From positions 1 to 32,473 of the forward strand of contig NGBS01000632.1 of NCBI GenBank assembly GCA_002245135.1: 32,473 nucleotides of DNA. The letters are read 5' to 3'. The DNA comes from Proteromonas lacertae. Taxonomy: Eukaryota. Shown here piece after piece: positions 1 to 32,473 of the stretch; position 1 is the stretch's first letter; each line of letters begins with the position of its first letter. Below the pieces are notes generated by a model. The model did not search any database, was not told the origin of the DNA, and saw nothing but the letters and a program-made list of their open reading frames with translations. A program made the position numbers and the translations under genes.

Positions 1-705
1 GAAACATAAATACATTCTCTCTCCAAAGAATACATCACTTTTCATTGATAAAAATGTATTGTAATAATTTACCTAAAAACATCTTTACATGAATAGTTTT
101 AGACTTCTTATACTGTTGATATTTATCTGTTGTTCCAGTAGGCTGTAACAAATGTAGCTTCTTCTTTATCCATTTCCCATTCATTTTCATCAAGAATTAA
201 ATGATCATGGTATTCATCATTCCATTTTAATTGAATTCCATCATAATAATTAGATTGATAAAAAATGTCAGATCTTTTTCTCACTAATTCATCCATAAAC
301 ACTCTATAGTGTTCATAATTGTCATCAAGCTTAACTAGATCTGTTCCTGTATTATTACATAAACGAAATGCTGCTAATCCAAATCCTTCTTTCATTCCTT
401 TTATATACTTTGGATATAACTCACCACTAGCTGCTACATTACCACTAAGATCAATTTTTTTAAATGCATTTGCTGCAGCAAGTGAATGAGTTTCAATTTC
501 GATATCATATTGAATGTAAGACTTTGCAAGGTTTATAATGTTCTCACCACTTAATTCGAACCTTATTTCATCTGAATAAGTGTTATCTTTAAGTTGATAG
601 AATGATTTAGTTTCCATTGGTGTCAACTTGAACATACTGGTAAAAGGCCATCATTGCTGGAACGTCTACACCGTGTTTTTGCTCTTTTGGGATAGTTAGA
701 GACAT
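1..705 (-). pseudogene. Major capsid protein-like gene (double jelly-roll type), N-terminal part, with three apparent +1 frameshifts; runs off the window start
   Basis: ATG at 705 gives MSLTIPKEQKHGVDVPAMMAFYQYV. A shift near 631 continues into KLTPM...DEIRFELSGENIINLAKSYIQYDIEI...FRLCNNTGTDLVKLDDNYEHY. Shifts near 147 and 63 give ...IHVKMFLGKLYNTFLSMKSDVFFGERMYLCF. The IRFEL..G..INL..SYI.Y.I pattern and the position right after a penton-like gene resemble PLV-type MCPs. Confidence 0.62.
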
Positions 706-1700
706 CAGAAACACAAAATAAAAATAAAATAAAAATTAGACTTTAAGACAACAATATCTAAATTAAACTCGATATTATCAAGATTGAGTTCATAACCATT
801 TTGTTGAGTAATCTGAATAGTAATTTGACCATTGGTATAAGTATTATTGAACATTTTACTAGTATTAAGAATGTCATTGTTCTGGTATGTAATGAATGGT
901 AACTCAGGGTTTGCTATTGGTATATTTTCTAACACATTTGAATCTTGAATGATGTTTACAATATCTAAACGAATGGATATCGCACTAACCCATATAAGAG
1001 ATGGACGATATGGTAATTGAGTAAATGGGAAATCTACTGAAAATGCAGCTAATGCTTTTTCTGTTCCTTGAGGTCCTGGAACAAATTTATCATAACATAA
1101 CCAATAGTTATTATTTGGAATACCTAATATCTTGTAGGCTAAATCTTTTGTTACTATTTCTATTTTTGAAATCCAAAAAATAGGTTTTGTTAAACTATAT
1201 AATGCATTCATTTTACTTGCAATTTTTAAATGTCTGGTATGTTCATCATCTTTATCATCTAGCTTAAATAAATCACCATTACCTTCTATTACAGGTGTAT
1301 ATAGTATATCCTTAACTATAAACAAATCATCATCAGGAATTTCAAAATCTATATATTTTATAGAACGTATTCCATCATTGATTAACTTAATAATCTGATT
1401 CTCATCATAAAAACCTTCAGGAATTTGTACTGATACACATACTGTGGGTTTTTCTGGCGCTGCGCCATCTTCTTTATCATAATCACATGTAAATAAGAAC
1501 TGAAACGTATCGTTTGTCTCTGCTTGTATAGTAGGGAAAGAATTAGGGACAACTGCGTGTAATAACGACACATGAGTATAATCTTGATCAAATGATGGTA
1601 AGGCTAAGGTCTTTTTGTATCTATTCCCTACTCCGAATGTCCCTGTAGTCATTACCATATCAGAATTTAAATAGTATACACGGTGATTAGAGACTAACAT
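705..1700 (-). CDS. Minor capsid (penton, single jelly-roll) protein-like, 331 aa
   Basis: Motif order typical of PLV/virophage/NCLDV pentons: N-terminal YYLNS, VSLLHAVVPNSFPTI, VQIPEGFYD, KILG, VLENIPI, and C-terminal ITIQITQQNGYELNLDNIEFNLDI. Intronless. Confidence 0.75.
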   Translation of the reverse strand: MLVSNHRVYYLNSDMVMTTGTFGVGNRYKKTLALPSFDQDYTHVSLLHAVVPNSFPTIQAETNDTFQFLFTCDYDKEDGAAPEKPTVCVSVQIPEGFYDENQIIKLINDGIRSIKYIDFEIPDDDLFIVKDILYTPVIEGNGDLFKLDDKDDEHTRHLKIASKMNALYSLTKPIFWISKIEIVTKDLAYKILGIPNNNYWLCYDKFVPGPQGTEKALAAFSVDFPFTQLPYRPSLIWVSAISIRLDIVNIIQDSNVLENIPIANPELPFITYQNNDILNTSKMFNNTYTNGQITIQITQQNGYELNLDNIEFNLDIVVLKSNFYFIFILCF

Positions 1701-1712
1701 TTTGAAAAAAAT

Positions 1713-1754
1713 AATAATGTCAATATTGGTAATATTAGTAATATTGACACTATT
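1713..1754. promoter_or_regulatory. Near-palindromic element in the 62-bp divergent intergenic region (putative bidirectional viral promoter)
   Basis: TGTCAATATT (1718-1727) and AATATTGACA (1740-1749) form a perfect inverted pair. Three AATATT hexamers sit at 1722, 1731 and 1740 (9-bp period), between ATGs at 1700(-) and 1763(+). Confidence 0.6.
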
Positions 1755-1762
1755 TTTATTTT

Positions 1763-2386
1763 ATGGAAGATAATAAAAAACCTAAACATAGAACAGTTCC
1801 ATTCAAATTAACAGAATTAGACAAACAAGTAATCATCAGAAGCTTCAGAAAAGACGGTAAAATCAGAGCTCCCACAAAATCGAAATTATATCATTTAATT
1901 TCAGGATCAAAATCAAGACTTACATACTCAGAGATAAGATATATATTGAAATACATCGAAGATGAGTACAAATATTACATAGAATCAAAGTTTAAGACAG
2001 GTTGTTTTAATGGACCAATCATTGAACAAGTAAAAGTACCTCTTAACGCGCCAAAACTAACCGCTTCAAGCTTCGCTCAAGCCTTAAGTAAACACAAAGA
2101 ACACAGAATTGCAGGTCAAAAGAAGACAAGAATGATGTTAGAACAGATTTTAGCATTACATAAGAAGGAAGAAGAGGACTTTTTACCTCCACAAGAGATA
2201 ATTGACATAAAAGATGACGAAATTAAGGTAAAAGAAGAGGTAAATTACATAAAACCGGTCACAAAATCGAATGTAAACAGTTTAAGTGGTTTAGAAGACT
2301 TGTCTCCTGTTAACTCAGTTCCTAGTTTAAGTCCAAAATCAATAACAGATAAAAGCATTATAAGGCCTAATTGTATTATATTTTAA
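1763..2386 (+). CDS. Hypothetical viral protein, 207 aa: basic helical N-terminus, SP-rich tail, C-terminal CaaX-like CIIF
   Basis: Intact intronless ORF divergent from the capsid genes; ends RPNCIIF-stop; contains EIIDIKDDE. Confidence 0.75.
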   Translation: MEDNKKPKHRTVPFKLTELDKQVIIRSFRKDGKIRAPTKSKLYHLISGSKSRLTYSEIRYILKYIEDEYKYYIESKFKTGCFNGPIIEQVKVPLNAPKLTASSFAQALSKHKEHRIAGQKKTRMMLEQILALHKKEEEDFLPPQEIIDIKDDEIKVKEEVNYIKPVTKSNVNSLSGLEDLSPVNSVPSLSPKSITDKSIIRPNCIIF

Positions 2387-2418
2387 TTTTTTTGTTAATT
2401 GATTTAAAATTTTTTCTT

Positions 2419-2655
2419 ATGGGGAACGATATAATGACAATTTTACTCTCTGTATTAGTATTTATACTCTATATGCTCGCTTTGGCACTGTACAAATACT
2501 TCAAAGCACACAATTGTATTCCAAATGAGGTAGATATCGCAGACATTCGTTCAAATATGACCGATATGATGGAGAAAGGCTTGCAGCATGACAAGACATT
2601 GGAAGATATAAAGACATATATAGACATTGTGAATAAAAGAAAGCACACAGTTTAA
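2419..2655 (+). CDS. Small single-pass membrane protein, 78 aa (element-encoded)
   Basis: The first ATG is at 2419 (MGNDIM...). A hydrophobic stretch ILLSVLVFILYMLALALY is followed by KYFK and a short amphipathic helix. The track's TTG start at 2371 overlaps the previous gene and is unlikely. Confidence 0.65.
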   Translation: MGNDIMTILLSVLVFILYMLALALYKYFKAHNCIPNEVDIADIRSNMTDMMEKGLQHDKTLEDIKTYIDIVNKRKHTV

Positions 2656-2690
2656 ATAATTTGTAACGAATTAATTTTTTATTATATAAT

Positions 2691-2783
2691 AAACGGCTAT
2701 TTTTTTTAGGGAAAGTGAAACGACTCTTTATTTAGGGAAAGTAAAACGACTATTTTTTCAGGGAAAGTAAAACGACTATTTTT
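2691..2783 (+). repeat. Tandem 26-27 bp repeat, about 3.5 copies (AAACGACTATTTTTTTAGGGAAAGTA consensus)
   Basis: Units start at 2691, 2718, 2744 and 2770 (partial). A related single copy lies at 3974-3994. Confidence 0.9.
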
Positions 2784-2999
2784 CTTTTAAAAAAATGAAA
2801 GTTATTATTGAGATTCGAACGCGTTTTCATCATTTAAATAGCAACGGTTAAACAGTTAGACTAAATAATTGCCTAAAATAAAGTACATGTGACGATTCAT
2901 TTTGTACAATGTCGATTGAAGAATAATTCTCAATCGTTGCGTCAAAAATAGAATATGAAGAAATTTCTTAGAAAATTCAAAAATTTGAATTTTCAAATA

Positions 3000-3122
3000 T
3001 TCAAATCTATTTTGACGAGGTTTGACTTGAACGGTTGGTTTGTGCATCAAATTTCAAATCTAATTTGACAAATGCTTGACTTGAACAGTCGGTTTGTGCA
3101 TCAAACTTCAATTTAATTTGAA
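3000..3122 (+). repeat. Tandem 53-54 bp imperfect repeat, about 2.3 copies
   Basis: TTCAAATCTAwTTTGAC...TTGACTTGAACrGTyGGTTTGTGCATCAAA at 3000 and 3053, with a partial third copy at 3107. Confidence 0.85.
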
Positions 3123-3283
3123 AAATAAGAAATTGGCTTGCAAATTCATTTTGAAAATAATTATTTGGCTTGTCCGAAATGAAATTGAAGAACCGTTTCA
3201 GAATTATTGTGTTTCGTCATTTTTGAAAATGATGAAACGGCATTTTAGGCAAATTTTAAAATTTAAATTTTTGAATTTTTAAA

Positions 3284-3380
3284 TTTCGCGCGCTCTCTGT
3301 CTAAAATTTGAATTATTTAAAAAAACTAGCGAGTTTTAATAATTTAGCGCGAGCTAGCTTAATTGGTTTTCGCGCCAAAA
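3284..3380. promoter_or_regulatory. Cluster of E2F-consensus sites upstream of the 3499 gene
   Basis: TTTCGCGC at 3284-3291, variant TTTAGCGCG at 3343-3351, and dyad TTTTCGCGCCAAAA at 3367-3380, in otherwise CG-poor DNA. Confidence 0.55.
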
Positions 3381-3498
3381 ACTATTTTTTAGTTATAATG
3401 ATTAGTTCAAAATAGAATTTAAATTTTATATAGGAATTGTATACTATTCATTCAAATCTATTTTGAAAATTACAATTAATCTTAAAATTATTGAAAAA

Positions 3499-3783
3499 AT
3501 GTCTTCACCCATTAATCCTAAAGAACCAGTCGATTTAACTACTGAAAACAATGAACCTTGTATAAATACACATTCAATTTAATTTTCAATAGCGCATTTC
3601 ATCATCGATTTAACGAATGAAGATGATGAAGTGCCAAAGAAGAGAAGTTACGCTGTCATGACAACCAACGGTCGCACAAAACGTTACAAAACAAGAACGG
3701 TTACAAAAATGCGAACAATTGATGAACAAGATTTACCTGAAGAAGAAGGACCCGTCAGTAGATTAATTAATTCAACTCATTAA
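3499..3783 (+). CDS. Spliced 83-aa microprotein with two SIM-like motifs and a basic NLS-like patch (exons 3499-3559, 3593-3783)
   Basis: AAAAATG start. The 33-nt GTATAA...CAATAG intron contains an in-frame TAA. Spliced product: MSSPINPKEPVDLTTENNEPSHFIIDLTNEDDEVPKKRSYAVMTTNGRTKRYKTRTVTKMRTIDEQDLPEEEGPVSRLINSTH. Absent from the ORF track. Confidence 0.7.
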
Positions 3784-3992
3784 TTGTTTTTATGATTGAA
3801 TTATGACTCTAAATGCTTTTTTTGATACTTTAAAAAAAAAAAAAAAAAACATAAAAAAAACTGTGCATGAGCACAGGCCCGTACTCGCCATACTTCAAAT
3901 TTTAAAAAAGCTTGATTCACAAACCGCCAGTTTAAAAATTCAAAAATTCAAATTTTTAAAAATTCAAAAAATGAAACGGCTATTTTTATTTT

Positions 3993-4035
3993 AGCCTCGG
4001 GTCCAGCGTCAAGCCTCGTGGTCCAGCGTCAAGCC
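3993..4035 (+). repeat. GC-rich 19-20 bp tandem repeat near the putative element terminus
   Basis: AGCCTCGGGTCCAGCGTCA (3993-4011), AGCCTCGTGGTCCAGCGTCA (4012-4031), then AGCC. Confidence 0.9.
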
Positions 4036-4054
4036 ATTTTGGGTCTGTAGCCCT

Positions 4055-4400
4055 TAATATATATTATTATGTCGTTTGTGTTTATTTCTTGATTGAGTGT
4101 ACAATGCTGTTTATTCGTAATATTTTCTTCCAGTCTAAAGAAAAGAAACAACGCTGTAAATATAGAGGAATAGTATGATATAGTTTTATTGTAACTTGAC
4201 TAGAATCAGTTTATTCAGTATTTTACCGTAATAAATCTGATTAAGGAAGTGTTAAGATGTAGCGTTTCTAGATTAGCATCGATAAGTAAAGCATTAATGT
4301 CATCTATCTGTTCATCTTGTTATAAATGTTCATTTCTTCATTTAGAAAAAAATACTTACTACAACATGCTCATTATGCCGGTAAGCAGCATTCTAAATCA
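4055..4400 (-). pseudogene. Remnant of a host-type intron-containing gene running into the element boundary
   Basis: The minus strand reads QDEQIDDINALLIDANLETLHLNTSLIRFIT, then a 27-nt GT-AG intron (4226-4200), then SSYNKTISYYSSIFTALFLFFRLEENITNKQHCTLNQEINTNDIIIYI up to about 4055. There is an upstream in-frame TAA and a second candidate intron at 4359-4336. Confidence 0.4.
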
Positions 4401-4419
4401 ATGTGTCGCTTTTACTAAA

Positions 4420-7400
4420 ATGAGAAAAATATGTGGATGTATTAATATATATATTCTCATTTTTATATAATAGGTTTCATGTTTTACTTGCTGATATGTT
4501 CAAATGTTTGTTTATGTGATGATAATGCTTATTTTGCTGATTTGTTGAATGGACCAAATACTGTTATTTTGGATCATCCTATTACACTTCATTCGCAAGA
4601 TTTTTCAAGTTATTTTAAAGCAACATATTTAATAGGACTTAGAGAAGTTTCACCTATTACAATAGTAGTGGATGAAAATAGATCTATCAATTTGTTTAGT
4701 GAGCTAAATGGAAAATATATAGAACGTATTACATTTGTAATTAACACAACATTACCAATAAATGGAGGTGGAATTATTAAATTCATGAATAGTTCAACTT
4801 TAAGTGATATTGTAGTTAATATTAATGGAAGATTATTAATTGAATCATCATCAAATGAAAAAAATGCGATATTGTGTAATGAAATGAAAGATAGTACAAT
4901 TACAGGTGATATTGTATTCGATGATATGGAAGTTAGTATTAAAGAAAATTCATATTTTGGTTTAATTTGTGGTTGTATTGATGAATCAACCAATCAAAAT
5001 AAAGAATTATCATATGGTTTTATGAATGTCATAGGAGATACAATAAAAATAAATAATAAAAAAGAATCTATAGTTGGCTTGGTATTTGGTGCATCGTTCA
5101 CAAATATAAATATAGATGTTGCATATGTTCTAATAAAAACAGACATAAGCATTGAATCAAATGATGATTATGAAAGTGTAGGATTCTTTATAGGTTATAG
5201 TAATTGTAGTACTAAATTTGGTAAAAATTCAATTGATATACACTTAGGGAATATAACTAAATTTGGTGGATTGGTAGGTAAAGAAGACCAAGAATTGACT
5301 GTAACAACTGCTTTGATTAGATTGTATTTAACTGATAATTTCAATATGAGTAGTAAATTTGGATTGATTGGTTATGAAAGTGTTCATGATATGACTATGG
5401 ATAATAGTTATTTTGATATAATAGACAATAGAAGCAATAGTGGATCTATATTATCCGATAATATAATAACAGTCAAAGTAATATATTCTGCTACAGGTAG
5501 AATATCAGTTACTAATAGTTATATGACTGTATCTAATTCTTCAATAGTAGAAAATGATATTAGCAATAATATAGAATTACTTTCATCATACTGTATTCCA
5601 TCAGATTCAAATCTCGCAACTCATGATTACATACGAAATGGTATTTCCTTCATTATTATATTGGAAGTTCCATATTACTATAATAATGAATTCTACAGAG
5701 GACAACCTTTATATGATTCAACTAGTATAATATGTACAGAAATATCTATATCTCCAGCTTTAGAAAAGATAGAATTCATTAATGTAGATTATGTTCCAAA
5801 AGAATTACAGATCACAATTAATAAACATGATATGCCTACTCCAGTAATAGTGATTCTATCATTTAATGAAAGTTATTTCAGAGTAATACCAACAATAATT
5901 GAATTAAGAGACAGTAGTAGTTTTACAATAACTCCAAAGGATACTCATAGAAATATTTCTTCTTTATTGTCATTTGAAGTGAAAAGTGAAAGTATATTCA
6001 TTAATAATTTTCAAATAAATCCAATTATACTTTCTACAATATTTGTTGCTATATCTGCACCAAAATTATTATCATGCAGATTAAGAGATGAAGATTATAT
6101 TTTGGTATTAGAATTTGATAAAAAATGTATAATGAAAGGAGTAAAAGTTAATGAGATCTTTACATCGAATGAAAATGAGTTATTAATATTTGATCCATCC
6201 ACTACCATTGATGTTTTATTTTTTATGTGGACAAATGATGAAACCTTATATGTTTATTATAATTCAACAACTGAGAATGTTACAGTCGATTCAAAAGTAA
6301 CAATTAAAGAAGGATATATATATCCAAATGTAGATTATAGTACTTCTACAAATGATACATTACCCATTAAATTAAGAACAAATATTCCACAAGTAATAAA
6401 AAGTGAGTTTATGGATGAAAATACTGTAGTAATAAAATTTGATGTTGATATAAAAGATGGAATAGATATAAATGGAAGAAAATGTAATGAAATATTTAAC
6501 GATACTTCATTTAGTTTATCATCAATGTGCTATTTATCATCACCAAAAGAAATAACAATGAAATTATCAAATCCAACTACATTAAGTCTAAATGATTATT
6601 TACATTTTATTCCAAATGTAATTAAGAGTAGTAAGAATCATATAAAAGGATGTGAAGGTAAAATAATTATAACAACAAATATATTTTATTCTATTCAACT
6701 AAGTATAATAAAACCACGATTTGTTTCTCCTTGCTATGATTTTATTATATATGGAAAGTCTTCAAATGAAATAAGGCCATTAATATATCATTGGAGTTCT
6801 TCAAATGAAACATTGAATAGTATAATTAAATCATTAAATGAACCAATGATTGTAATACCAAAGAACTCATTAGATGGTGATAATGATTATAATATTACAT
6901 TAGAGGTTGAAAGTCCTTTTAGTCATGAAACATATTACATAAACGAAACATTTCGTGTAGGTTCAGATTCTGAATTAAACATAAATATAGAAGGAGATGA
7001 TTATGTAAGTGTAGTAGTTGATCAAAGTGTTTATGTTCGGGGAAGAGTGTCATTATATCAATGTAATGAGAATATTCCAAAACCAGAAATCAATTATAAT
7101 TGGTCAATAAAAAATGAAATTGATGATGAAATTGAAATTGATATATCCAAATATGAAATAGTAGATGAAACTAGATTGTTTTTCGACTCATTTACAATAG
7201 AAAAAGGTCAATATACAATTGTTTTAAATTCTTCAGTTAGTGGTTTACATTCTAGTTATTCAATTAATTTTTATGTAGAAGGATCACAAACAATTGAAGT
7301 TTTATATCCAATTTTTTTGAGTCAAAACAAATCAGAACCAATAATAATAGATTTATCAAATTTGAAGGATCATTATTCAGGAATGATGATTGCCTATAAT

Positions 7401-10400
7401 TGGAGATGTAGATTTAATAAATATGATTATTGTGATAATGTAATTAAAGGCATAACAAGTTCTAGAATTGAAATTCCAAGCAGAAGCTTAGAAGTTGGAG
7501 TATATGAATTAAGTGTTGGTATAACAGGTATTGAAATTCCTTATTCTAAGACATTTATAAGAGATATTAAAGAGTTGCCTTTCTCTTTATTTATTAAAAA
7601 TCTAAATTCAAATGCAACTGCATTTAGTCCAAATGATATGTTTCAGTTAAAAGTTATTATATCAATTAATAGTAATGAAGTTAAATATAAATGGATTTAT
7701 TCAAATGATGAAAATGTTAATCCATTTATAGGCAAAACTAATTCTAATATAGTGAATATAAATTGTGGGGTTTTAAATCCATCAATTACTTCTCACAGAA
7801 TAACATTAGAAATAATATATAATGGTGTTAAAGTAGACTCATATTACGAATTTAAAGTTAATGAAGGACCAATATTTGGTTTTTTATATTCATCAACATT
7901 AGAATACAAATTTGGTGATAATATACTATTATCAACATTCGGTTGGAAAGGAGTAAAAGATGTTGAACAATTTAGTTATAGATTTGGTGTAATTGTGGAT
8001 AATTCAACATATTATCTACAAGCTGTGTTTGGACTAGCATGTTACTATTTTGGACCATTACCACTAGGTTCAAAACAATATAATTATACTTTAACTCCTA
8101 TTGTGTTTGTGAAAGATAAATTTGGTGCAGTATCAAATTCAACTTTAGATAAGAATGGTGATGTTATTCAAATATATTCTCCTCCTTTAGAACTAGATGA
8201 TTTATCAACAATAACTGATGATTTAAAGAGTGTAATAGATGATTTAAAAAACGAAAAATATTATGACTATTTATATCCAATTATTGAAGGAATATCCTCA
8301 CAAATGAAAATGAAAAGTTGTGAGTATATAATGTGTGAAAATAATGCTGAATGCTATGATGGTCATTGTCAATGTTTAGAAGGATTCTATGGTGAATTAT
8401 GTGAAAATCGAATTCCAATTGATGGTGGATTAAGTTTAACTTATACTTATGGTGAATGTGATCATAAATGTGGCCTTGGATTAAGACCAAAATGGAAAGA
8501 GTGTAACTATCCAAAACCGGAATATGGTGGAAAAGAGTGTAAAATTATTGTTGAATATGAAATATGCATTGGTGAAGATGGATATGACTGCGTTGATATG
8601 GATGGAAAATGGACTGAATGGAGTAGTTGGGGTGATTGTAATTCAATTTGTGATGTTTATGATGGAAAAAGAAAATATGGAATTAAAACAAGTAGTAGAA
8701 ATTGTACAAATCCAAAACCATCAGGAAATGGTATAAATTGTGTTGGTGAAAGTATTAGAAGTGAAGAATGTTATATAGTATGTGAATCTGTTAGAAAATT
8801 ATGTCCAGGTGAATATTTATCAAGAAATGGAACAATAGTTGGAAATAAATGCAGTAATAAAGGAACTTGTGTTGTTAGTAGAAATGGATGTAAAGAATAT
8901 GAACCGAATTGTCATAGTAAATGTAAATGCGATAATGGATTTAAAGGTGAAAAATGTGAATATTTAGAAAGTGAATATGATATTAGATTGAATTTAAATA
9001 AAATATTGTTAGATGGTATGATAGAAGCTTCAAAGAATAATGTGTTAGTATATGATTCAATTGACCAATATTCTTCTGTATTATTATCCGTAATAAATCC
9101 TCCAGATCAATTAACTCTAGAAAATAAAACCTCTACAATATCAATAATAAAATCTACAATTAATCTGTTGAAAGAAAATTGTTCCAACGAATTATCATAT
9201 GAATCAATAGCTAATTATTTGAAAACAACTTCATTGTTATTGAAAGATGAATGGAAAGATAGAAAAGAGGATAATTCAAGGTTGCTTGAAACATCAACTG
9301 TAATAGGTAAACAATTACCAGAGATATTCAATGATATAAGTGAAATACATTTAAATCAAGATAAATCAATGATTCCTATAGAAGTTAATACTAATATGTT
9401 TAGTTTCAAATCAATAAAGTATGATGGAAGTATTGATTTAAATGAGGTAGGATATTCAGTCAAATTTCCAGATTCAATATTAGGAAAAGTCGGAGAAACA
9501 AATGAAATATCAATAATTGATTGATTAGATAATCCAAATGAAGATGATTTTGAATTAAGTAATAGAACTGCAGGAGTAACAACAATCTCAATAATGGATA
9601 AAGAAGAAGAAAAGAAGATGGATAGTTTAAAACAACCAATATATTTCATTCAAAGATTGAATGATAATGCTACTTTAAGAAATGTTGAATGTACTTATTA
9701 TATAGATGGCGAATTATTATCAAAAGGTTTAATAGTAATGGGAATAACTGGTGATGAAAAAGGGAATAAATATGTTCTATGTGCTTCTGTTCATTTAAGT
9801 GATTTTTCAACTAGAAAGAAATCTATATTACCAAAAATGAATTTAGTAAATCCAATCAGTGATGCGAAATTATTAGGTAATTATAATAAAGATAATATGG
9901 TAGTTCCTATAGTATTAGGAAGTGTGATACTGATATGTATTATTGCATGGACTTTTACTAAATTCAAAGATTTAAGTGAATATGCAGCATTAGAAACATA
10001 CAAAAGTGATTATTTTAAATTAACAGGAAGATTAGATGACAAAGAAACAGATTGTATTAAGATAGAAAAGAAGCGAAAGAACATATTCCAGAAATTTTGG
10101 GATATTTTGATAGATGAACATAGTTGGTTATCACCACAGTTAGGTCCAACTGAAAGATTAATAGTAATCAATAGAAGTCAAAGAATTTTATGTTTGACTG
10201 CTCAAATATTGACTTCTACAGCTGTAAGCGCATTATTCTTTGGTAATAATGCTGACAATACATCACAGTTAGCAATGACTTCAATAATATCTTGTTTATG
10301 TATGTTACCTGCTACAATATTCATTCCTAGTATATATAAACTTGCAAATGGTTATAGTTCAAAAAAATCTTCAAGAAAAACAGTATCTAAATCCATAATT

Positions 10401-11419
10401 ATTTTAAATAAAATAAGAAGATCAATAAATGGTTTTAAAAAAAGAAGTCAAGTATGTATATGATGAAAGTTTTACTATTGATAACAGATCTTGTGTTTGA
10501 TGGATTGAGTGCCTGTTTCTTTATATCGTTTATGGCAATATTGCCGCCTGGTTATATTACTTTGGTATTGTTCATCATTTATGTTGTGTTTATTATTGAA
10601 ACAGTAGCAAATATTATAATTTCAAATGAGAAAAATATTAAATTTTTCTTTATAATAGTATTAGTAAATATGATTATATTGCTGTTATATGTCAATTTAT
10701 TCATTTTATATGTGCTTTACATGGGTGATTCATCAGTGGCATATTCAATATGGAAGAATTGTTATAATGGTGGAGTATTACAAGATATTAATGAATATAT
10801 AGAAAATAATTTAGAATGTTGTGGTTTTAAATTGATTAATGATTATAATACAACTGACTGTACTGCTCCAAAGATAATTGCATTAGGTATAGATCTTACT
10901 GGATGCAAATTCTTATTAGTTGATAAATTCAAGCAATATGCTGCTTTGTGGCTGATATATTTTAGTATTAGTTTAATTTTAGTGTTGATGAAAATTGTTT
11001 GTTTAGTTAGATTATCGTTTGTTAAATATAATACCGTAGCTGTAGATATAGAGTCTAAAGATTTAAATGAAAAATATAAAAATGATTCAATATCAAAAGA
11101 ATCAGCAGATAAAATAAAATGCATGATGAAATACAGCGTTACAAGAATGTATTATAAAAGGAAGATTGAATATCTACATTTAAAAAGACAAAGAAGAATA
11201 AGAGCTGGGTTGATAATATTAGCAAATTCATTTGTGTTTTTGTACATTTTAATAATGGTTTATATCAATTTGTTATATGGAGTGAAATTCAGTAGTGATC
11301 AAGCTACACAATGGATATTGAGTTCAGTAATTTCTATGGTTATAAATGTAGTAATACAAGAACCTTCAATGATATTGTTATCAACAGTAGCATCAACAAC
11401 AATTGGATCTCTTTTTTAG
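4420..11419 (+). CDS. Giant polycystin-1-like (REJ / EGF / TSP1 / GPS, multi-TM) receptor, about 2300 aa, with one in-frame TGA at 9522-9524
   Basis: ATG at 4420 plus intron 4439-4473 gives a signal peptide. Features: REJ-like beta repeats (YNWS, YNWRC, YKW, NEGPIFG), EGF repeats, TSP1 (WTEWSSWGDC...RNCTNPKP), GPS (CASVHLSDF), TM, HSWLS...RSQRILCL...SALFF and terminal YGVKF...WILS...QEP segments. ORFs 4479 and 9594 are in the same frame. A probable intron at 10456-10487 joins ORF 10454. Confidence 0.8.
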
Positions 11420-20845: not shown

Positions 20846-21838
20846 TTAATTTGATTCATCTGGTAATAGTACTCTCTTTGCACTTTCTAAAGTATTCTAT
20901 TTAAATAAATATATAAAATATAAAAAAAATACTTTCAATAACATTGCAATTGTCATTGGACCAACACCACCTGGTACTGGAGTGATTTTAGAAGCAACTT
21001 CTTTACATTCATTGAAGTCACAGTCACCTACTAACTTATATCCTCTCTTATCTGTAGCATCTGGTTTTGAATTCATGCCAACATCAATAACAACACATCC
21101 TGGCTTTAACCAATCACCTTTCACAAGCTCGGTTTGACCAACAGCAGCAATTAAGATATCAGCTGTCTTTACAACTTCCTTCAAGTTTGGTGTTCTTGAA
21201 TGGCAAATAGTCAATGTTGCATTTCTCTCCAATAATAATAAAGCAACAGGAATACCTACAATGTTACTTCTTCCTAATACAACAGCTTGTTTGCCTTCAA
21301 TTGTCACTCCTGAACGGTCTAATAATTCTATACATCCTTTAGGTGTACAAGCAACGAATAATGGTTTTCTACCTTTCATTGCTAATTTACCGATATTTAA
21401 AGGATGAAATCCATCTACATCCTTTTCAATCGAAATTTCTGATAATACAGCTTCTTCGTTAATGTGTGATGGTAATGGCAATTGAATTAAAATACCATTT
21501 ACTTCTGGATTGGCATTTAATGTCTTTACTAATTCAATTAATTCTTCCTAATATATTCATATATACATAAATATAAATACTTGAGTAATGTCAGCTCGTT
21601 TAACATAATCAAAAGCAGCAATTCCTACTTCTGCGCATGCCTTCTTCTTCATACGTACATATGTTTGTGAATCTTTTCTTTCTCCTACAAGAACAACAGC
21701 TAATCCAGGAACCTAAATTAAATCAATTTGAATTATTAATACTTTACCAGTCTTTTCTTTTAAAGCAGCTACTGCTTCTTTTATTTCTTGTCTAATTGTC
21801 TTTGCAATCTCGTTACCATTGATTAATTCAGCTGGCAT
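20846..21838 (-). CDS. folD: Bifunctional methylenetetrahydrofolate dehydrogenase/cyclohydrolase
   Basis: [55 protein letters not shown] and [16 protein letters not shown]; three short introns. Confidence 0.96.
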
Positions 21839-25709: not shown

Positions 25710-28700
25710 TTATACTCTCACTCCATCCTTCTTAGCTTCTTTCTTTTCTTCTGGTTTTACATCTTTTCCATCAGCTTTAGCAGCAGCCTTCTTCTTTCCA
25801 GTTGGTCTCTTCTTTCTTTCAACACTCTTTGATATACATCTACAATAAACACAACCAAGCACAATTATCAATACAGCAGCTCCAGCTACAACAAGACCAA
25901 TTATCATACCAATATTTGTTCCTGTACTTGCATCTCCAGAAGCACTTGCTGTTGGTCCTTCAATTTCACCTGAAGTGTCAATACTTATAAATGTTGATCC
26001 AAACAAATCTGTATAACCTTCTCCTACTAATCTATTAAATTCTTCCATAACAAGTTGTGTATTTGGATTGAAATATGAAGTTAATTTCTTTGCATTAGCT
26101 TCAGCATCGGCAATTCTTACTTCCACTTTAAGATTATTTTCTCCTTCTTCTGTTTGTTCATCAATGAAATCTAATAAAACTGAAGATGGTTTAACAATAA
26201 CACCAGAAGCATTTAATGCACTATTCAATGATTGAGCAACCAATTGCTGGAATACTTGATAATGTAAACCAGATATATCAGATTTAGATTTTAATGGAAT
26301 AGACATATCGAATTTAAGATATACTTTTTCTGGTGGTGGTATTTCTTTATCATCTACAGCCACACAACTTGAATTATTTGGAGTTCCCCATCTACCAATT
26401 GGAACTGATCCACTAACAGTAAATGAATTACATGGTCTTACTTCAGTACCTAAGAATCCAGTTGGACACAAAACAGCAGCTTCTGAACCATAATCAGTAG
26501 TAATCCATACACCTTCACCATTACATTGGAATGTTTCGATATTCAATGAGATTAATTGACGAATAGAATCACCTTGAGCATTGTGAGCAACAACATAATA
26601 TACATCACTACCACGAGGAACTGTTGTTGATACTTTACCAGATATTTTACCAGTTGTTTCATCAAGTGATAATCCTTTTGGTAATGCTGGAGATAAATCA
26701 TGTAATCTATAAGAATCTGGTTCACCTTGAACATTAGTTGGACTTACTTCAAATGGTACATCCCAATAGACGTTATTATCTTTTGAAGCATATTGGAATG
26801 ATGGAACATCTACTTTACATGTATCTACTGGACTTTGCCATTTTGGATCTTCAACATTTGGACAATATCTACTTCTTTGACCTACTTTTGTTGAATCAGT
26901 ACATGCTAATACAGCTTGTGAACCAGCTCTTGTTTCTGGCCATTCACCTTCTTCTGGACATACTGCTAATACAACTCTAATCTTAAATTTTGTTTCTTTT
27001 TGACCTACATTGTTTTTACCCAAAATTATAATATCACTGGGAAAGTATTCTGCTGAACTCATACCTTGTAAATGACCAGTGTTTTTATTCAATGTAATAC
27101 CTAACGGTAATTTTGAAGACCCAGTCATAAGCGAAAATTCAGTTGGCATACCACCACTTGTTCTCCTTGGTGGTAATGATTTATAGAAACCTACACTGAA
27201 TGTTACATAACCATCCTTCATTTCATATCCCCATACTTCTGGAGCTGGAGTTGTACAACCTGAATCATCTTCATCACCCCATGATGGATTTGCTGTATAT
27301 GGACATCTAATAATTATATGACCATTATAACCTTCTGGACATGGCTTTGTTACTTCTGTACCAGCTTCACCTGATGGTAAATCTCTACTTGGAATAGCTG
27401 CACACATTGCATCTGCAACTACAATTGTCAAAGTAGTAGTTAGTTCTTGATTTCCAAATGCACTTATTACTATATCTGAATAAGTTTTTGTTTCTGTTGG
27501 TGCACCTCCTATTGAACCATCTGTATTTAATTCTACACCTGGTGGTAATGTTCCAGATTTTACTGAATATGTAATATTATTCTTATTACCTACTATTACT
27601 GGAACTACATTTGTGATTGGAACGTTTTTATATGCATTTATATAACTAATCGAATAAGAGAAGGATGTTGGATTTGGATTTTCACATGTACTAATAGGAT
27701 CTTCTAATGTTGGATTATACTTCAATGGACAATATCTACTGATTTTACCAATTTGTGGTAGAGGACAGTCTGAAGAATAATATTCACCTGCAGGAACAGT
27801 TCCTGAACCAGGAAGACTACATGTAGCTTGTTGTACATTTATAGTAATAGGTTCTGCAACACCATTAATTGAAAGTGTATATGTTTTTGTGCCAACTTCC
27901 TTTGGTATTCCTTTAAAACATCCAGTGATTGGTGAAACAACATAATCTTGTGGTGTTATTGTAAGAGAAGTAACAGCTCCAGATACAAATACTACACTAC
28001 TGTTGAAACTCTTAGAACAATCTACTTCAATATCTTTATAAAGTGTAAATGCTTTGTTTATATATGCAATTGTTCCTGTTGAAGTAAATGCTTGAATCTT
28101 TAATGCTTGAGTATATGATGAATCTCCATTATCAGCTGTTAAACTAAATTCATATAATCCAACATTTGGAGTATCACATGTTAATTGAGCTGTAGTCGAA
28201 CTTGAGGTTAATTTACATACATTCTGTGGATCATCTTTACTCCAAGTGGTTACTTGTCTTCCAGATATAACTGCGGCTGTCAATGGACTAGTTGATCCTG
28301 CAGTAACTGCAAATTCTGTATTGATTTGGCCATTTAAAGAAACTGTGAATTCTGGTGGTAATAATTTACATCCAGATGTATCTTCAGCATCCCATGAAGA
28401 TTCTCGTGTAGTTGAACATCTTCTAGTTCTATTTCCTGAATAACCATTTTCACATGCAATTGAAGCAGAATCACCAGCTTTTGTTTGTGGCCATGTTCCA
28501 TCTGCATTGCAATATACAATTGTAACAGTAATAGCAACTGATGCTTTTAATTCTTTACCATCTCCTGTTGTTCCTGTAACATCACATGAATATGTTTTAG
28601 CTTCATTATCATTCTCAATCATAGCTATACCAGATAATATACCAGTTTCTGATTCAAATGAAATACCCATTGGTAAACCATTTGAGCATGATATATAATA

Positions 28701-31700
28701 GCTATTTACACCACCATTAGTAGTTGGTGAAACAGAACTAGCAAATCCTACTTTAAATGTTGTTGGTGTATAGGAAATAGATGTTGCATGACTCTGACAT
28801 CCAGCTATTTCATTTTCCCAATTTGCTGTTACTCCATCTGAATTAGCTACACATTTACGAGAAATCCATCCACTTTGAGTTGAATTACATGCTATTCTGG
28901 CAGTATAACCAGCTGCTGTTGAAGGCCATTTGCCATCTTCTGTTGCATTACAATAAGCTGGTATACAATTGTATTGTAATAAATCTGCCATTTGATAACC
29001 ATAAACTCCATTTTCTGGTTGTTTTACACCTGCTATTTGTAATCTAAATGCATTGTATGATTTGTAAATATTATTTAGATTAAACTTAGTTTGTACTGCA
29101 TTAGCTGATGGTAAGTTAACAGATAATTGTGTATCAATCAATTCCCAATCATTAGTACCATATTCTGATGAACCATATACTCTCCATCCTGTTGGATTTC
29201 TATATTCCCATCTATCATTAGCTGTCCAGAAGTCATACATATTGAAATATTCAGCTCTTTTATTTGGCCAATAAATATCAAAATTAACAGGATAATCTTC
29301 TTTAGTATGAATAACATATGTTTTAGTACCATGGTTATTATCAATTGCTTTGCTAGCTTCTTCACCTCCATTAGTTGTTCCTGATGTATAAGCTTGAACA
29401 CCATTCATTGTTGTTTTTAATGAACATTTACCTGTTTGAGTTGTTGAACTAGCTGTTGGTAATAAAGATGCTTTAAATGGATCATATGCTATACTGCTTC
29501 TATATCTATGACATTCTACAGCCATATAATTCTTACCAGCCTTAATCAACATTTGTGGAATTACAACAGTTCTTGCTGCTATTGGATCAATTAATCTCTT
29601 TCCCCATGTTGTTTCTGTTACTAATCCAATTGGTAAACCATTTCTGTATATTTCTACTCCATTCAAATAAATGATAATACCAGAATCATGTGTTACTGAT
29701 AAATCTAAACTGGAAATAAATGTTAATTCATCATAGAAATTAAACTCTATTCCATAATAACTAGCTATTGTTGTTCTTGTTGGGAATAATCCTGATCTAT
29801 ATTTATTTGGCATATATGATTTATCTAATTCACTCTTCCATTTATCATTATTTGGCTTGCTATTTGAGAAATGCCATTCAGAACTATCTGTTAAATAACT
29901 TGTTAATGAAACTACATACTGAGTAGTTTTTACTGTTGTTGAATCATGTCTATATGTATCAAGTAATTGTGTTGCTAAATAAATATAGAAATTAGTATCA
30001 GATGTCCAAGAATGCTTATTAGAATTTCCAACTACTAATTCATATGCACCTAATGTAACACAAGCTGACATCCATTTATCATGATTCAATATATTACCTG
30101 CATTGCTTATAACATAGGATGATGATGAAAATGATTTGAATGTATAATAGTTTCTTGGGCATTCATTATCACATGTAAATCTAAATACAGCTAATTCTTT
30201 TGTTCCTGGACATTGTTGATCTGCAATAATTTGAATTGTTGTTGGACTTGATTCACCACTTGGATTTATGGCTTTTAATGTTATAGAAATACCATTTCTT
30301 CCCATTCCCATTGTTGTACCAACAACACATCCTGTTTCTTCACTAAATCTTAAAAATTCTGGGAATTCACCAGATTCTACTATTTCTACTCTACTTGCAC
30401 CATTTTGAATAGATGGACATAAAGAAACAATTTGACCTGGAATTACATTCACTTGAGGTGTTGGATAAACTAAAATTGGTGGAGCATTTACTGTATTTCC
30501 ATTAACAACATATGCATCTGTAGTCCAAGCACCATCAGTATTATTAGCTGAATATACAACCAAATTATCCATAGATATTCTAAACCAACCACCACTAGCA
30601 GCTCCTCTTCTTGTAAATGTCACATTGTACATATCTGGTGTATTACATTCAGTGTAAATATATTCTTGAAATCCTACTAATCCAGAACCTTGATGAAGTA
30701 ATATACCTCTGCTATTCATTAATTGAACAACTACATCAGCATTTTGTATCGTATATTCAAATCTTAAGAATTTCATTGATCCTGGACAACCTGTTACTGT
30801 AATTGATACTTTTGCTTCTGTTGATCCTGATGGATTTGATGCTTCAATTGTCACTGGTTCACTCCATTGTTCATAAGGAATGCCAGATATTTCACCTGTA
30901 TTAGGATTAAGTGATAAACCTGTAGGTAATGGTGATTTTAATGTATAAATTACACCAATCGCATTATCCAATGATGGAGATACTGAATTAACAGTAACTC
31001 CATTTACTGTTAATTTTTGACCAATACTTGTTGATATTGTTGGATATACTAAGTTTTGTGGATTGAATCTTTGTTCAACAGTAAATGTAATTTGAGTTGT
31101 ATAGGTTGGTAAACTTGCATCTGATGAACTTGATGCTGTAATTGTATAAGTTGTTTCTAATACACCAAGATCAGTTGGAGTACCTGATATAACACCTGTT
31201 GATGGATTAATCATTATACCTGATGGTAATAATGGATTGATTAAGAAATTGTTATATTTTGATGATTGTACTTGGAAGAATATTGGTTCATTACTTTTAA
31301 TTGCAATACCACTTACATATGTTGCCAATTTATAAGTATATTCTAAATAACCTTCTGGTACATGAAGTAAATATTCAAAATCAACCTCTTTTCTACTGAA
31401 TGGATAATTTCCACTATCATGTGTCCATTCAAGTGAATGTGATTTATTACCTGAATTTTGTGCTTTACCAAATAATATACCAAAATATGTCAAACCACCA
31501 TTTTCAAATTTTATTGTTATATCCCTACTCTGTGAACCACAAGCTGTATTTTTATTTGAATAATAAGCACTTTCACTTGCTATATATAATCTTGACCAAT
31601 CAGTTGCTTCAGCATGAAATGTATAATCTCCTGCTTCGGGTATATTAAGATAACCTTTCCAATAAGCAACGAATGAACTCTTAAAATCATTAGTTAAACC

Positions 31701-32473
31701 ATCCCAAACAGCAGCGCTTGATGGGAATTGTACACCTTTAGTTTCATATCTTGTAAATTTCAATGTTAATTGTTTAGGAACTTTATCAAGATCAATAATA
31801 TCACATCCAACATTTCCACTATAATAATAACCAGTTACACCTCTTGATAAACTATTTCCATTATTATCTAATATACCAAATGATATTTTAATAACTACTG
31901 TAACTACATTTGTAGCTGTAATTGTATATTCTCTTCTGTTGTATGCAATTGTTGGAGTACCACTAATAACACCATTGTTAAACACAACTCCTGGTGGAAG
32001 ATCTGGTTCAATTCTCCATGTTTTAACTGGTCCAACAAGAGTTGGAGTAATTGGTTCAATTTTAAGACCTTTTACAAAGATAAAATCATTTGTAGCATAC
32101 GATACTTTCTGTAATATTGAACCTGTTGGTCTGGCAAATGCACTATCAGGAATATTAGTATAATCTGTAATTCCAGCATTTATACTTCTCCATTTTATAT
32201 CATAATATTGTGCAGTTCCACCATTGTAGAAATAAATTGCTAATTTTCTATAACCAGCTTGTAATGTCTTTGTATATGTGCCTGCTGCATTATAACTACC
32301 TGTCATAACATTTGCAACACTCATATCATCAATAAATACCCACATTTCATCATCTCCTTGTATTTTAAACTGCCATTCACCTCCTGCTGGAATATTAATA
32401 TAACCTGTGAATCTAGTAGCATAATATTCTTTTCCTATAACTGATGAACTTGAATCTCGAACTGGATAAGCAA
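25710..32473 (-). CDS. Giant type I surface protein (>2250 aa, 5'-truncated): PA14 domains, He_PIG-type Ig-like repeats, discoidin/galactose-binding-like domain, Cys-rich HRM-like repeats, C-terminal TM
   Basis: The frame is open to the window end (YATRFTGYINIPAGGEWQFKIQGDD). Repeated LPxGLxLNxxTGxISGTP and CxxDGxWPxTxAGxxAxxxC...GxxxRxC motifs; TM IIGLVVAGAAVLIIVLGCVYC followed by a Lys-rich tail. Confidence 0.9.
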   Translation of the reverse strand, partial: AYPVRDSSSSVIGKEYYATRFTGYINIPAGGEWQFKIQGDDEMWVFIDDMSVANVMTGSYNAAGTYTKTLQAGYRKLAIYFYNGGTAQYYDIKWRSINAGITDYTNIPDSAFARPTGSILQKVSYATNDFIFVKGLKIEPITPTLVGPVKTWRIEPDLPPGVVFNNGVISGTPTIAYNRREYTITATNVVTVVIKISFGILDNNGNSLSRGVTGYYYSGNVGCDIIDLDKVPKQLTLKFTRYETKGVQFPSSAAVWDGLTNDFKSSFVAYWKGYLNIPEAGDYTFHAEATDWSRLYIASESAYYSNKNTACGSQSRDITIKFENGGLTYFGILFGKAQNSGNKSHSLEWTHDSGNYPFSRKEVDFEYLLHVPEGYLEYTYKLATYVSGIAIKSNEPIFFQVQSSKYNNFLINPLLPSGIMINPSTGVISGTPTDLGVLETTYTITASSSSDASLPTYTTQITFTVEQRFNPQNLVYPTISTSIGQKLTVNGVTVNSVSPSLDNAIGVIYTLKSPLPTGLSLNPNTGEISGIPYEQWSEPVTIEASNPSGSTEAKVSITVTGCPGSMKFLRFEYTIQNADVVVQLMNSRGILLHQGSGLVGFQEYIYTECNTPDMYNVTFTRRGAASGGWFRISMDNLVVYSANNTDGAWTTDAYVVNGNTVNAPPILVYPTPQVNVIPGQIVSLCPSIQNGASRVEIVESGEFPEFLRFSEETGCVVGTTMGMGRNGISITLKAINPSGESSPTTIQIIADQQCPGTKELAVFRFTCDNECPRNYYTFKSFSSSSYVISNAGNILNHDKWMSACVTLGAYELVVGNSNKHSWTSDTNFYIYLATQLLDTYRHDSTTVKTTQYVVSLTSYLTDSSEWHFSNSKPNNDKWKSELDKSYMPNKYRSGLFPTRTTIASYYGIEFNFYDELTFISSLDLSVTHDSGIIIYLNGVEIYRNGLPIGLVTETTWGKRLIDPIAARTVVIPQMLIKAGKNYMAVECHRYRSSIAYDPFKASLLPTASSTTQTGKCSLKTTMNGVQAYTSGTTNGGEEASKAIDNNHGTKTYVIHTKEDYPVNFDIYWPNKRAEYFNMYDFWTANDRWEYRNPTGWRVYGSSEYGTNDWELIDTQLSVNLPSANAVQTKFNLNNIYKSYNAFRLQIAGVKQPENGVYGYQMADLLQYNCIPAYCNATEDGKWPSTAAGYTARIACNSTQSGWISRKCVANSDGVTANWENEIAGCQSHATSISYTPTTFKVGFASSVSPTTNGGVNSYYISCSNGLPMGISFESETGILSGIAMIENDNEAKTYSCDVTGTTGDGKELKASVAITVTIVYCNADGTWPQTKAGDSASIACENGYSGNRTRRCSTTRESSWDAEDTSGCKLLPPEFTVSLNGQINTEFAVTAGSTSPLTAAVISGRQVTTWSKDDPQNVCKLTSSSTTAQLTCDTPNVGLYEFSLTADNGDSSYTQALKIQAFTSTGTIAYINKAFTLYKDIEVDCSKSFNSSVVFVSGAVTSLTITPQDYVVSPITGCFKGIPKEVGTKTYTLSINGVAEPITINVQQATCSLPGSGTVPAGEYYSSDCPLPQIGKISRYCPLKYNPTLEDPISTCENPNPTSFSYSISYINAYKNVPITNVVPVIVGNKNNITYSVKSGTLPPGVELNTDGSIGGAPTETKTYSDIVISAFGNQELTTTLTIVVADAMCAAIPSRDLPSGEAGTEVTKPCPEGYNGHIIIRCPYTANPSWGDEDDSGCTTPAPEVWGYEMKDGYVTFSVGFYKSLPPRRTSGGMPTEFSLMTGSSKLPLGITLNKNTGHLQGMSSAEYFPSDIIILGKNNVGQKETKFKIRVVLAVCPEEGEWPETRAGSQAVLACTDSTKVGQRSRYCPNVEDPKWQSPVDTCKVDVPSFQYASKDNNVYWDVPFEVSPTNVQGEPDSYRLHDLSPALPKGLSLDETTGKISGKVSTTVPRGSDVYYVVAHNAQGDSIRQLISLNIETFQCNGEGVWITTDYGSEAAVLCPTGFLGTEVRPCNSFTVSGSVPIGRWGTPNNSSCVAVDDKEIPPPEKVYLKFDMSIPLKSKSDISGLHYQVFQQLVAQSLNSALNASGVIVKPSSVLLDFIDEQTEEGENNLKVEVRIADAEANAKKLTSYFNPNTQLVMEEFNRLVGEGYTDLFGSTFISIDTSGEIEGPTASASGDASTGTNIGMIIGLVVAGAAVLIIVLGCVYCRCISKSVERKKRPTGKKKAAAKADGKDVKPEEKKEAKKDGVRV

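Follow-up and report, generated by a model that had tools for sequence, protein, structure and literature searches.

The window analyzed here comprises positions 1 to 32,473 of contig NGBS01000632.1. Its first 4054 bases carry a penton-like minor capsid gene together with the first half of the gene for a major capsid protein (MCP), and they probably represent one end of an integrated Polinton-like virus (PLV), with capsid genes of a Proteromonas-type family, in a low-GC, Blastocystis- or Proteromonas-like gut protist. Two abutting, tandem minus-strand genes of capsid type fill the first 1700 bases and point away from a repeat-rich arm. The plus-strand open reading frames (ORFs) ORF3 and ORF4 come next, then the arm with ORF5 inside it, and then intron-bearing host genes, which the arm adjoins (Table 1). 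The whole window is free of N, and the element DNA is contiguous with the host genes. An earlier annotation made from the sequence alone, here called the original prediction, had proposed a viral capsid module at this place, and each motif that it quoted was recovered: the minus-strand ORF 1700-705 contains PNSFPTI, IPEGFY, and ITQQNGYELNLDN, and the minus-strand frame that follows this penton ORF contains IRFELSG..INLAKSYI. The orphan ORFs that it mentioned were located on the plus strand. PLV core genes are the MCP, the minor capsid protein (mCP), and the packaging ATPase (PMC7805220), of which the first two are represented in the window.

The capsid genes

The MCP gene is interrupted by single-base frame changes near 625, 150, and 66. 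Its main piece has four longer relatives of 477-484 aa in Logan assemblies (54-65% identity). In a tblastn comparison, 12 intact relatives aligned as four collinear pieces on 705-4, at 54-81% identity, and the MCP piece matched the family alignment A4 with an hhalign probability of 100. The fold was modeled for the intact relative P0010, which is 65% identical to the window piece, from a four-sequence alignment. This low-confidence model (mean predicted local distance difference test score, pLDDT, 47.0) has two beta-rich jelly-roll halves, at residues 22-290 and 303-476. The original prediction had looked to a jelly-roll fold in both capsid proteins, and for the MCP the intact relative bears this out: among 23 Foldseek matches in the PDB at E <= 0.001, Sputnik MCP came first (3j26_A, E 6.4e-7), followed by mavirus MCP (6g44, E 8.3e-6), African swine fever virus p72 (E 2.4e-5), and then an iridovirus capsid chain. 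At the same threshold BFVD returned 26 matches; most are capsids with a double jelly roll, and a few are unrelated. The best VIA Z was 6.8 (p72; rmsd 13.2, 262 aligned), which alone is not above background. In Atlas clusters near an MCP relative (scores 0.96-0.97), 10-24% of the members bear Sputnik_MCP, Capsid_N, and Capsid_NCLDV; the recognition value is 1716, under the tool's 2300 mark. Because the fold halves agree with the Foldseek, BFVD, and Atlas results, the MCP is, as modeled, very likely a double jelly roll. The third-nearest Atlas cluster has 53% eukaryotic members, chiefly from Fornicata, a hint that endogenous capsids of a similar kind occur in another protist group.

Among 12 members of the MCP family, none matched a capsid family of Pfam at E <= 1. 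Weak Endotoxin_C matches were seen on two of nine proteins; they fall below the cut-off, and we rejected that identity and read them as a generic jelly roll.

The penton-like gene has eight relatives at 47-62% identity. The original prediction had described its product as a 331-aa protein. The ORF exists, but its last ~10 residues are nonhomologous: the window frame departs from that of the eight relatives near 745, and the relatives end about 10 residues earlier. The top Atlas cluster is "Sputnik minor capsid V18/19 domain" (0.98, 216/256 features), a family present on 26% of the members of that cluster. In the model (mean pLDDT 56.5), only a central insertion domain is folded. VIA ranked a capsid chain of EhV-201 first (Z 6.6) and the mavirus penton second (Z 5.2, rmsd 3.9, 119 aligned); lower rows were a flagellin (4.6), a PBCV-1 chain, an adenovirus-derived binder, and Sputnik chain N, which we take to be the penton protein. 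For this protein, then, the jelly-roll expectation is upheld in part, by the mavirus penton at rank 2, but not by the model, whose jelly-roll part is unfolded, nor by BFVD, which gave no match at E <= 0.001. Taken alone, the penton identity has moderate strength; it is strengthened because the gene adjoins the MCP gene. Between them, the Atlas, Foldseek, BFVD, and VIA comparisons support the capsid module of a PLV, as originally proposed.

Upstream of the penton-like gene lies a palindromic spacer with a folding z of -4.4, matched by none of 200 shuffles. It is likely a bidirectional promoter, from which the capsid genes and ORF3 would be transcribed divergently. The upstream extensions of the relatives P0003 and P0004 (mis-called N termini) align onto this spacer, which suggests that related DNA precedes the penton genes of these two relatives.

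Table 1. Features of the element end and its flank
Feature	Position	Strand	Description
5' half of MCP gene	1-705	-	start codon (ATG) at 705; in four frame pieces; truncated by the window start, ~residue 237 of ~480
Minor capsid (penton)-like gene	705-1700	-	~320 homologous residues; 8 relatives
Palindromic spacer between divergent penton gene and ORF3	1705-1762		inverted repeat I8
ORF3	1763-2386	+	207 aa, intact orphan; basic N-terminal half; acidic, Ser/Pro-rich tail
ORF4	2419-2655	+	78 aa, orphan; hydrophobic segment at N terminus
Repeat-rich, CpG-rich arm	2690-4054		tandem and inverted repeats; ends in CCCT
Tandem repeat	2691-2783		26 bp x3.5
Tandem repeat	2993-3126		54 bp x2.5
Tandem repeat	3110-3172		32 bp x1.9
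Tandem repeat	3993-4035		20 bp x2.2
ORF5, in arm	3499-3783	+	two exons; predicted 33-nt GTA..TAG intron at 3560-3592; predicted 83-aa product
Flank, probably host DNA	4055-4478		host gene start ~4420 (+); 35-nt intron 4439-4473

The capsid family and a published Proteromonas cluster

A profile search of 1.84 billion representatives returned 21 proteins at E <= 0.001. The 20 clusters of the family that were looked up are all found in Logan only, on contigs of at most 7818 bp. Five penton/MCP pairs share a longest contig of equal size (5409, 3319, 4457, 4759, and 4779), an indirect sign that the linkage of the two genes is conserved across relatives. When 79 family proteins were compared with the window, every match fell within 1-1760. 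In a tree of 16 rows, built without near-identical members or the fragments P0169 and P0175-P0184, the window piece grouped with P0009 and P0010 (support 99/99). Related loci were found in none of viral_contigs (arm pattern included), metagenome_contigs, genome_contigs, and INPHARED.

Bellas et al. (2023) reported a 450-aa MCP of Proteromonas lacertae that was recognized only by structure prediction (PMC10120064). According to Tables S3 and S4 of that paper, its cluster comprises 285 hits, some of them beyond 100 kb in their contigs; among the rows of Table S1 that were covered, all 10 Blastocystis assemblies are blank in the column in which Proteromonas has 285. The gene maps that accompany the paper (SI Appendix, Dataset S1) may already portray these elements. 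Five motifs of the published protein match P0010-P0012 in the same order (7/9, 5/7, 9/10, 7/8, and 9/10 positions), compared with at most 4 matches in 119 FolD control proteins. By these motifs, the MCP family of the window appears to belong to the Proteromonas lacertae cluster. The original prediction had suggested a possibly undescribed lineage; since the motifs tie the family to the published cluster, the lineage is not wholly undescribed, although the sub-branch was found only in Logan assemblies. We found no publication devoted to this capsid family in the literature on Blastocystis or Proteromonas with Polinton, virophage, or capsid, a search that lay largely outside subscription journals.

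The arm, ORF5, and the junction

The repeat-rich arm of the original prediction is real. Beyond its mapped tandem repeats, it holds 22 repeated 14-mers, compared with 0-2 in each of 20 equally long host stretches, and its observed/expected CpG ratio is 1.57 against 0.30 for the rest. Motif families found on one side of ORF5 return on the other (2691/3974, 3081/3894, and 3241/3931), and elsewhere in the window they give short low-complexity matches only; ORF5 therefore lies inside the terminal region of the element. At 4054, the GC-rich repeats of 20 bp close with CCCT. Polinton ends follow a 5'-AG...CT-3' rule, which this end fits, and 4054 is a plausible element boundary. The size of the arm is within the 100-1500 bp given for Polinton terminal inverted repeats (TIRs) (10.1101/2023.08.22.554363). 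The arm is likely one TIR or a subterminal region.

The sole in-frame stop of ORF5 lies inside the AT-rich, 33-nt segment that forms the predicted intron, and removal of this segment keeps the frame and leaves 83 codons. A comparable stop-removing segment arose in 135 of 20,000 shuffles. The same scan gave 15 other GT..AG candidates in 1-4500, several of them inside or opposite coding frames; the GT..AG pattern alone is thus not rare, and it is the stop-removing fit that appears to carry weight for a candidate intron. In size and style the segment matches the introns of the host folD gene. On the strength of this intron, the transcription of at least one element gene would take place in the nucleus, with splicing by the host. 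The predicted ORF5 product has two V/I-D-L-T plus acidic motifs, which resemble SUMO-interacting motifs, and one KKR. An A-rich run lies downstream of ORF5, at 3832-3860. Introns are on record in integrated Polinton-type viruses, in the form of dinoflagellate introners (PMC12166617); given this precedent, the ORF5 intron is a clue to nuclear transcription and not a first case.

ORF3 had no Pfam match, no match in viral contigs, and a best PHROGs E of 0.17. For ORF4, the Pfam and PHROGs searches gave weak matches only (COX2_TM at E 0.006, below the cut-off, and PHROGs at E 0.01-0.03). An Rfam scan of 1-5000 returned no match, and a σ70 promoter scan stayed at chance level, with a model that is inapplicable to this host.

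The junction is less sharp than first described. Host genes do follow the arm, but GC hardly shifts across it (29.6% versus 27.5%), and the first clear host gene begins at ~4420. CpG was rejected as a junction marker, host intergenic DNA being CpG-richer too. A possible short host gene, with intron-like segments and no Pfam match, reads toward the element at 4055-4372 (minus strand); one frame there stays open into the junction, perhaps as part of a gene that the insertion interrupted. Integration of the element in host DNA, claimed by the original prediction, is likely because the join is free of N, the arm resembles a terminal repeat, and a relative of the family is endogenous in Proteromonas; a single end is seen, so that integration falls short of proof.

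The host genes

The host uses the standard code, with a GC content of 27.5%, introns of ~25-37 nt, and DNA-encoded stops. An alternative genetic code was ruled out by frames of 1692 and 2253 codons that are open under the standard code. The tiny introns noted originally are real, measuring 30, 33, and 36 nt in folD. Human Blastocystis subtypes have 39-55% GC and 30-nt introns, and tortoise isolates 21-23% GC, longer introns, and canonical stops, according to Lind et al. (2025) (PMC12129017). The end-of-gene motif of human Blastocystis was not enriched in the window (5 occurrences versus 3.3 expected), and PMC5608401 yielded no relevant information on Ig/PA14 proteins as a possible Blastocystis marker. 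A "Blastocystis-like host," as first proposed, fits at the level of Opalinata, but the human-subtype signature of GC content and end-of-gene motif is absent. The host traits and the capsid link to Proteromonas make a host in Opalinata likely.

The three-intron folD gene (20870-21838, minus strand) encodes a protein ~75% identical to prokaryotic proteins. It is of gut-bacterial type, and a Logan cluster of 16 members is 97% identical to it; the folD search gave no name for the host. A lateral transfer of this gene into the protist is likely. A very large gene for a REJ/TSP1/EGF-like membrane protein occupies 4420-11419 (plus strand), with Pfam TSP1 and EGF matches below the cut-off; its single in-frame TGA, at 9522-9524, is a nonsense change or a base error. 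An open frame at 25710-32471 (minus strand) of at least 2253 codons has He_PIG repeats, PA14, a C-terminal membrane anchor, and an observed/expected CpG ratio of 0.12.

Alternative explanations

The four frame breaks raise the question of whether the element is a dead copy, its capsid module inactivated by real single-base changes after insertion. All four lie within the first 750 nt, and there are none in the other ~1820 coding nt of the element, a clustering at the window start that has p ~0.007 if breaks are spread evenly over 2568 coding nt. Inactivation would explain why these 750 nt contrast with three long host frames, whose 13,377 nt show a single in-frame stop and are free of frame changes, in an assembly that is accurate elsewhere; the Fisher p of 4e-5 for this contrast is inflated, the host frames having been chosen for being uninterrupted. 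The main capsid-gene pieces, however, are free of stop codons, and substitutions at invariant columns are not in excess: 7-13 of 70-82 in the MCP piece versus 4-16 of 70-82 in intact relatives, and 5-7 of 95-108 in the penton versus 0-13 in intact relatives. Introns were ruled out as the cause of the MCP breaks, because relatives align gap-free across each one. False frameshifts are described by Bellas et al. in assemblies of multi-copy elements of this type (PMC10120064). We favor assembly error or very recent damage over long decay, assembly error being preferred because the breaks cluster in 750 nt and substitutions are not in excess; a dead copy is possible but somewhat unlikely.

The same structural neighbors could also be read as a true virophage, dependent on a co-infecting giant virus and integrated as mavirus is in Cafeteria. 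The capsid proteins of Sputnik and mavirus are the best structural neighbors, and large DNA viruses are present in vertebrate guts (10.1101/2024.03.23.586382). Yet 12 family members match no virophage MCP family of Pfam and no PDB sequence, and a 2026 preprint treats the Proteromonas MCPs as PLVs, outside the virophage cluster (10.64898/2026.07.28.741278). In addition, the predicted intron would imply nuclear splicing rather than transcription in a cytoplasmic giant-virus factory, and egoviruses are reported to have no gene flux with Blastocystis (10.1101/2024.03.23.586382). We regard a virophage as improbable; helper dependence as such is also possible for PLVs, since Gezel-14T requires a giant virus (PMC10120064). 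Slightly less probable again is that the end of a free virus genome was mis-assembled onto a host contig. The relatives looked up all sit on short Logan contigs, the longest of 7818 bp, as this explanation would have it, but the join has no N or gap, the arm terminates in terminal-type repeats and not in mid-gene, the gene in the arm has a host-style predicted intron, and Proteromonas carries a related family in endogenous form. Host genes derived from capsid genes by domestication, or unrelated host proteins rich in beta structure, would account for the missing Pfam match and for a GC content near that of the host. They fit poorly with capsid genes that are intronless and abutting where most neighboring host genes have introns, with a broken MCP gene, and with relatives that occur as linked penton/MCP pairs in diverged variants, and we consider this explanation very improbable.

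Discussion

We interpret bases 1-4054 as one end of an integrated PLV, and several observations weigh against that interpretation. As the original prediction had already stated, there is no polymerase, integrase, or packaging ATPase in the window; a second terminal repeat and a target-site duplication were likewise not seen there. The capsid proteins and orphans had no accepted match in the profile libraries (Pfam, PHROGs), and the capsid proteins had none among PDB sequences. Both structural models are of low confidence (mean pLDDT 47.0 and 56.5), and the MCP fold is that of P0010 and not of the broken gene in the window, with TM-scores of ~0.2 and a best VIA Z within the range of chance arrangements. 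For the penton, the unfolded jelly-roll part and the empty BFVD result count in the same direction. The five motifs that link the MCP to Proteromonas were picked by eye, and the link rests on them and not on a full-length alignment. The CpG change point is at 4264-4482 and not at 4054. The host matches neither the human-subtype nor the tortoise-isolate profile exactly.

If the window holds one end of such a virus, the remaining part (in elements of this kind typically 15-30 kb) would lie beyond the window start and would carry the packaging ATPase, replicase, and integrase. The element would have entered the chromosome via its own integrase. Its virion is predicted to be icosahedral, with MCP trimers and the penton at the vertices, and the ORF5 transcript would be made in the nucleus and undergo host splicing. 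A bolder version of this scheme is doubtful in our view: an intact, still mobile PLV of a low-GC Blastocystis lineage, from a gut-protist virus family without a name (21 representatives at 50% identity) that co-diverged with Opalinata; this virus would be transcribed in the host nucleus and would express a spliced, SUMO-binding early protein from its terminal repeat.

Endogenous PLVs are common in protists; the capsid family of the window has a supplementary-table record only. The locus and its Logan relatives supply profile seeds for both capsid genes and link the family with a host chromosome. Should the host be Blastocystis, viruses of gut protists would become searchable in metagenomes; if it is Proteromonas-like, the locus is one more copy of a family already counted, though undescribed. 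If the gene in the arm is indeed spliced, it would point directly to nuclear transcription, a matter unknown for most PLVs. The locus likely adds a member to a barely described group rather than a new kind of virus.

Among known systems, the Maverick-Polintons sensu stricto have a TIR range that the arm fits and an end rule, 5'-AG...CT-3', that its CT end fits; they differ in pPolB, rve integrase, and protease, which are not in the window, and the window MCP lacks a Pfam sequence match. Sputnik and mavirus (Maveriviricetes, including the endogenous mavirus-like elements, EMALEs) provide the nearest solved folds for both capsid proteins and also integrate in stramenopile hosts, but the window proteins are ~10% identical to theirs and have no profile match, and the window holds no maturation protease. 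The Blastocystis MELD virus, a DNA virus of medium size that was recovered from Blastocystis datasets and has pPolB and an integrase (Starrett et al. 2021, PMC8502044), resembles the window family in that its virion proteins are unrecognizable by sequence. In BFVD, the rank 3 Foldseek match of the P0010 MCP model (E 1.3e-5, 8% identity) is a protein of a "MELD virus sp.," which is not identified with the Blastocystis virus. The Proteromonas lacertae cluster shares with the window family its five collinear motifs, a host in Opalinata (for the window, a likely one), and recognition only by structure prediction. Its representative is of similar length, 450 aa compared with 477-484 aa in the window relatives, but the window branch (P0009-P0012, P0165) has clearly diverged from the printed representative, to which it is by eye about a third identical.

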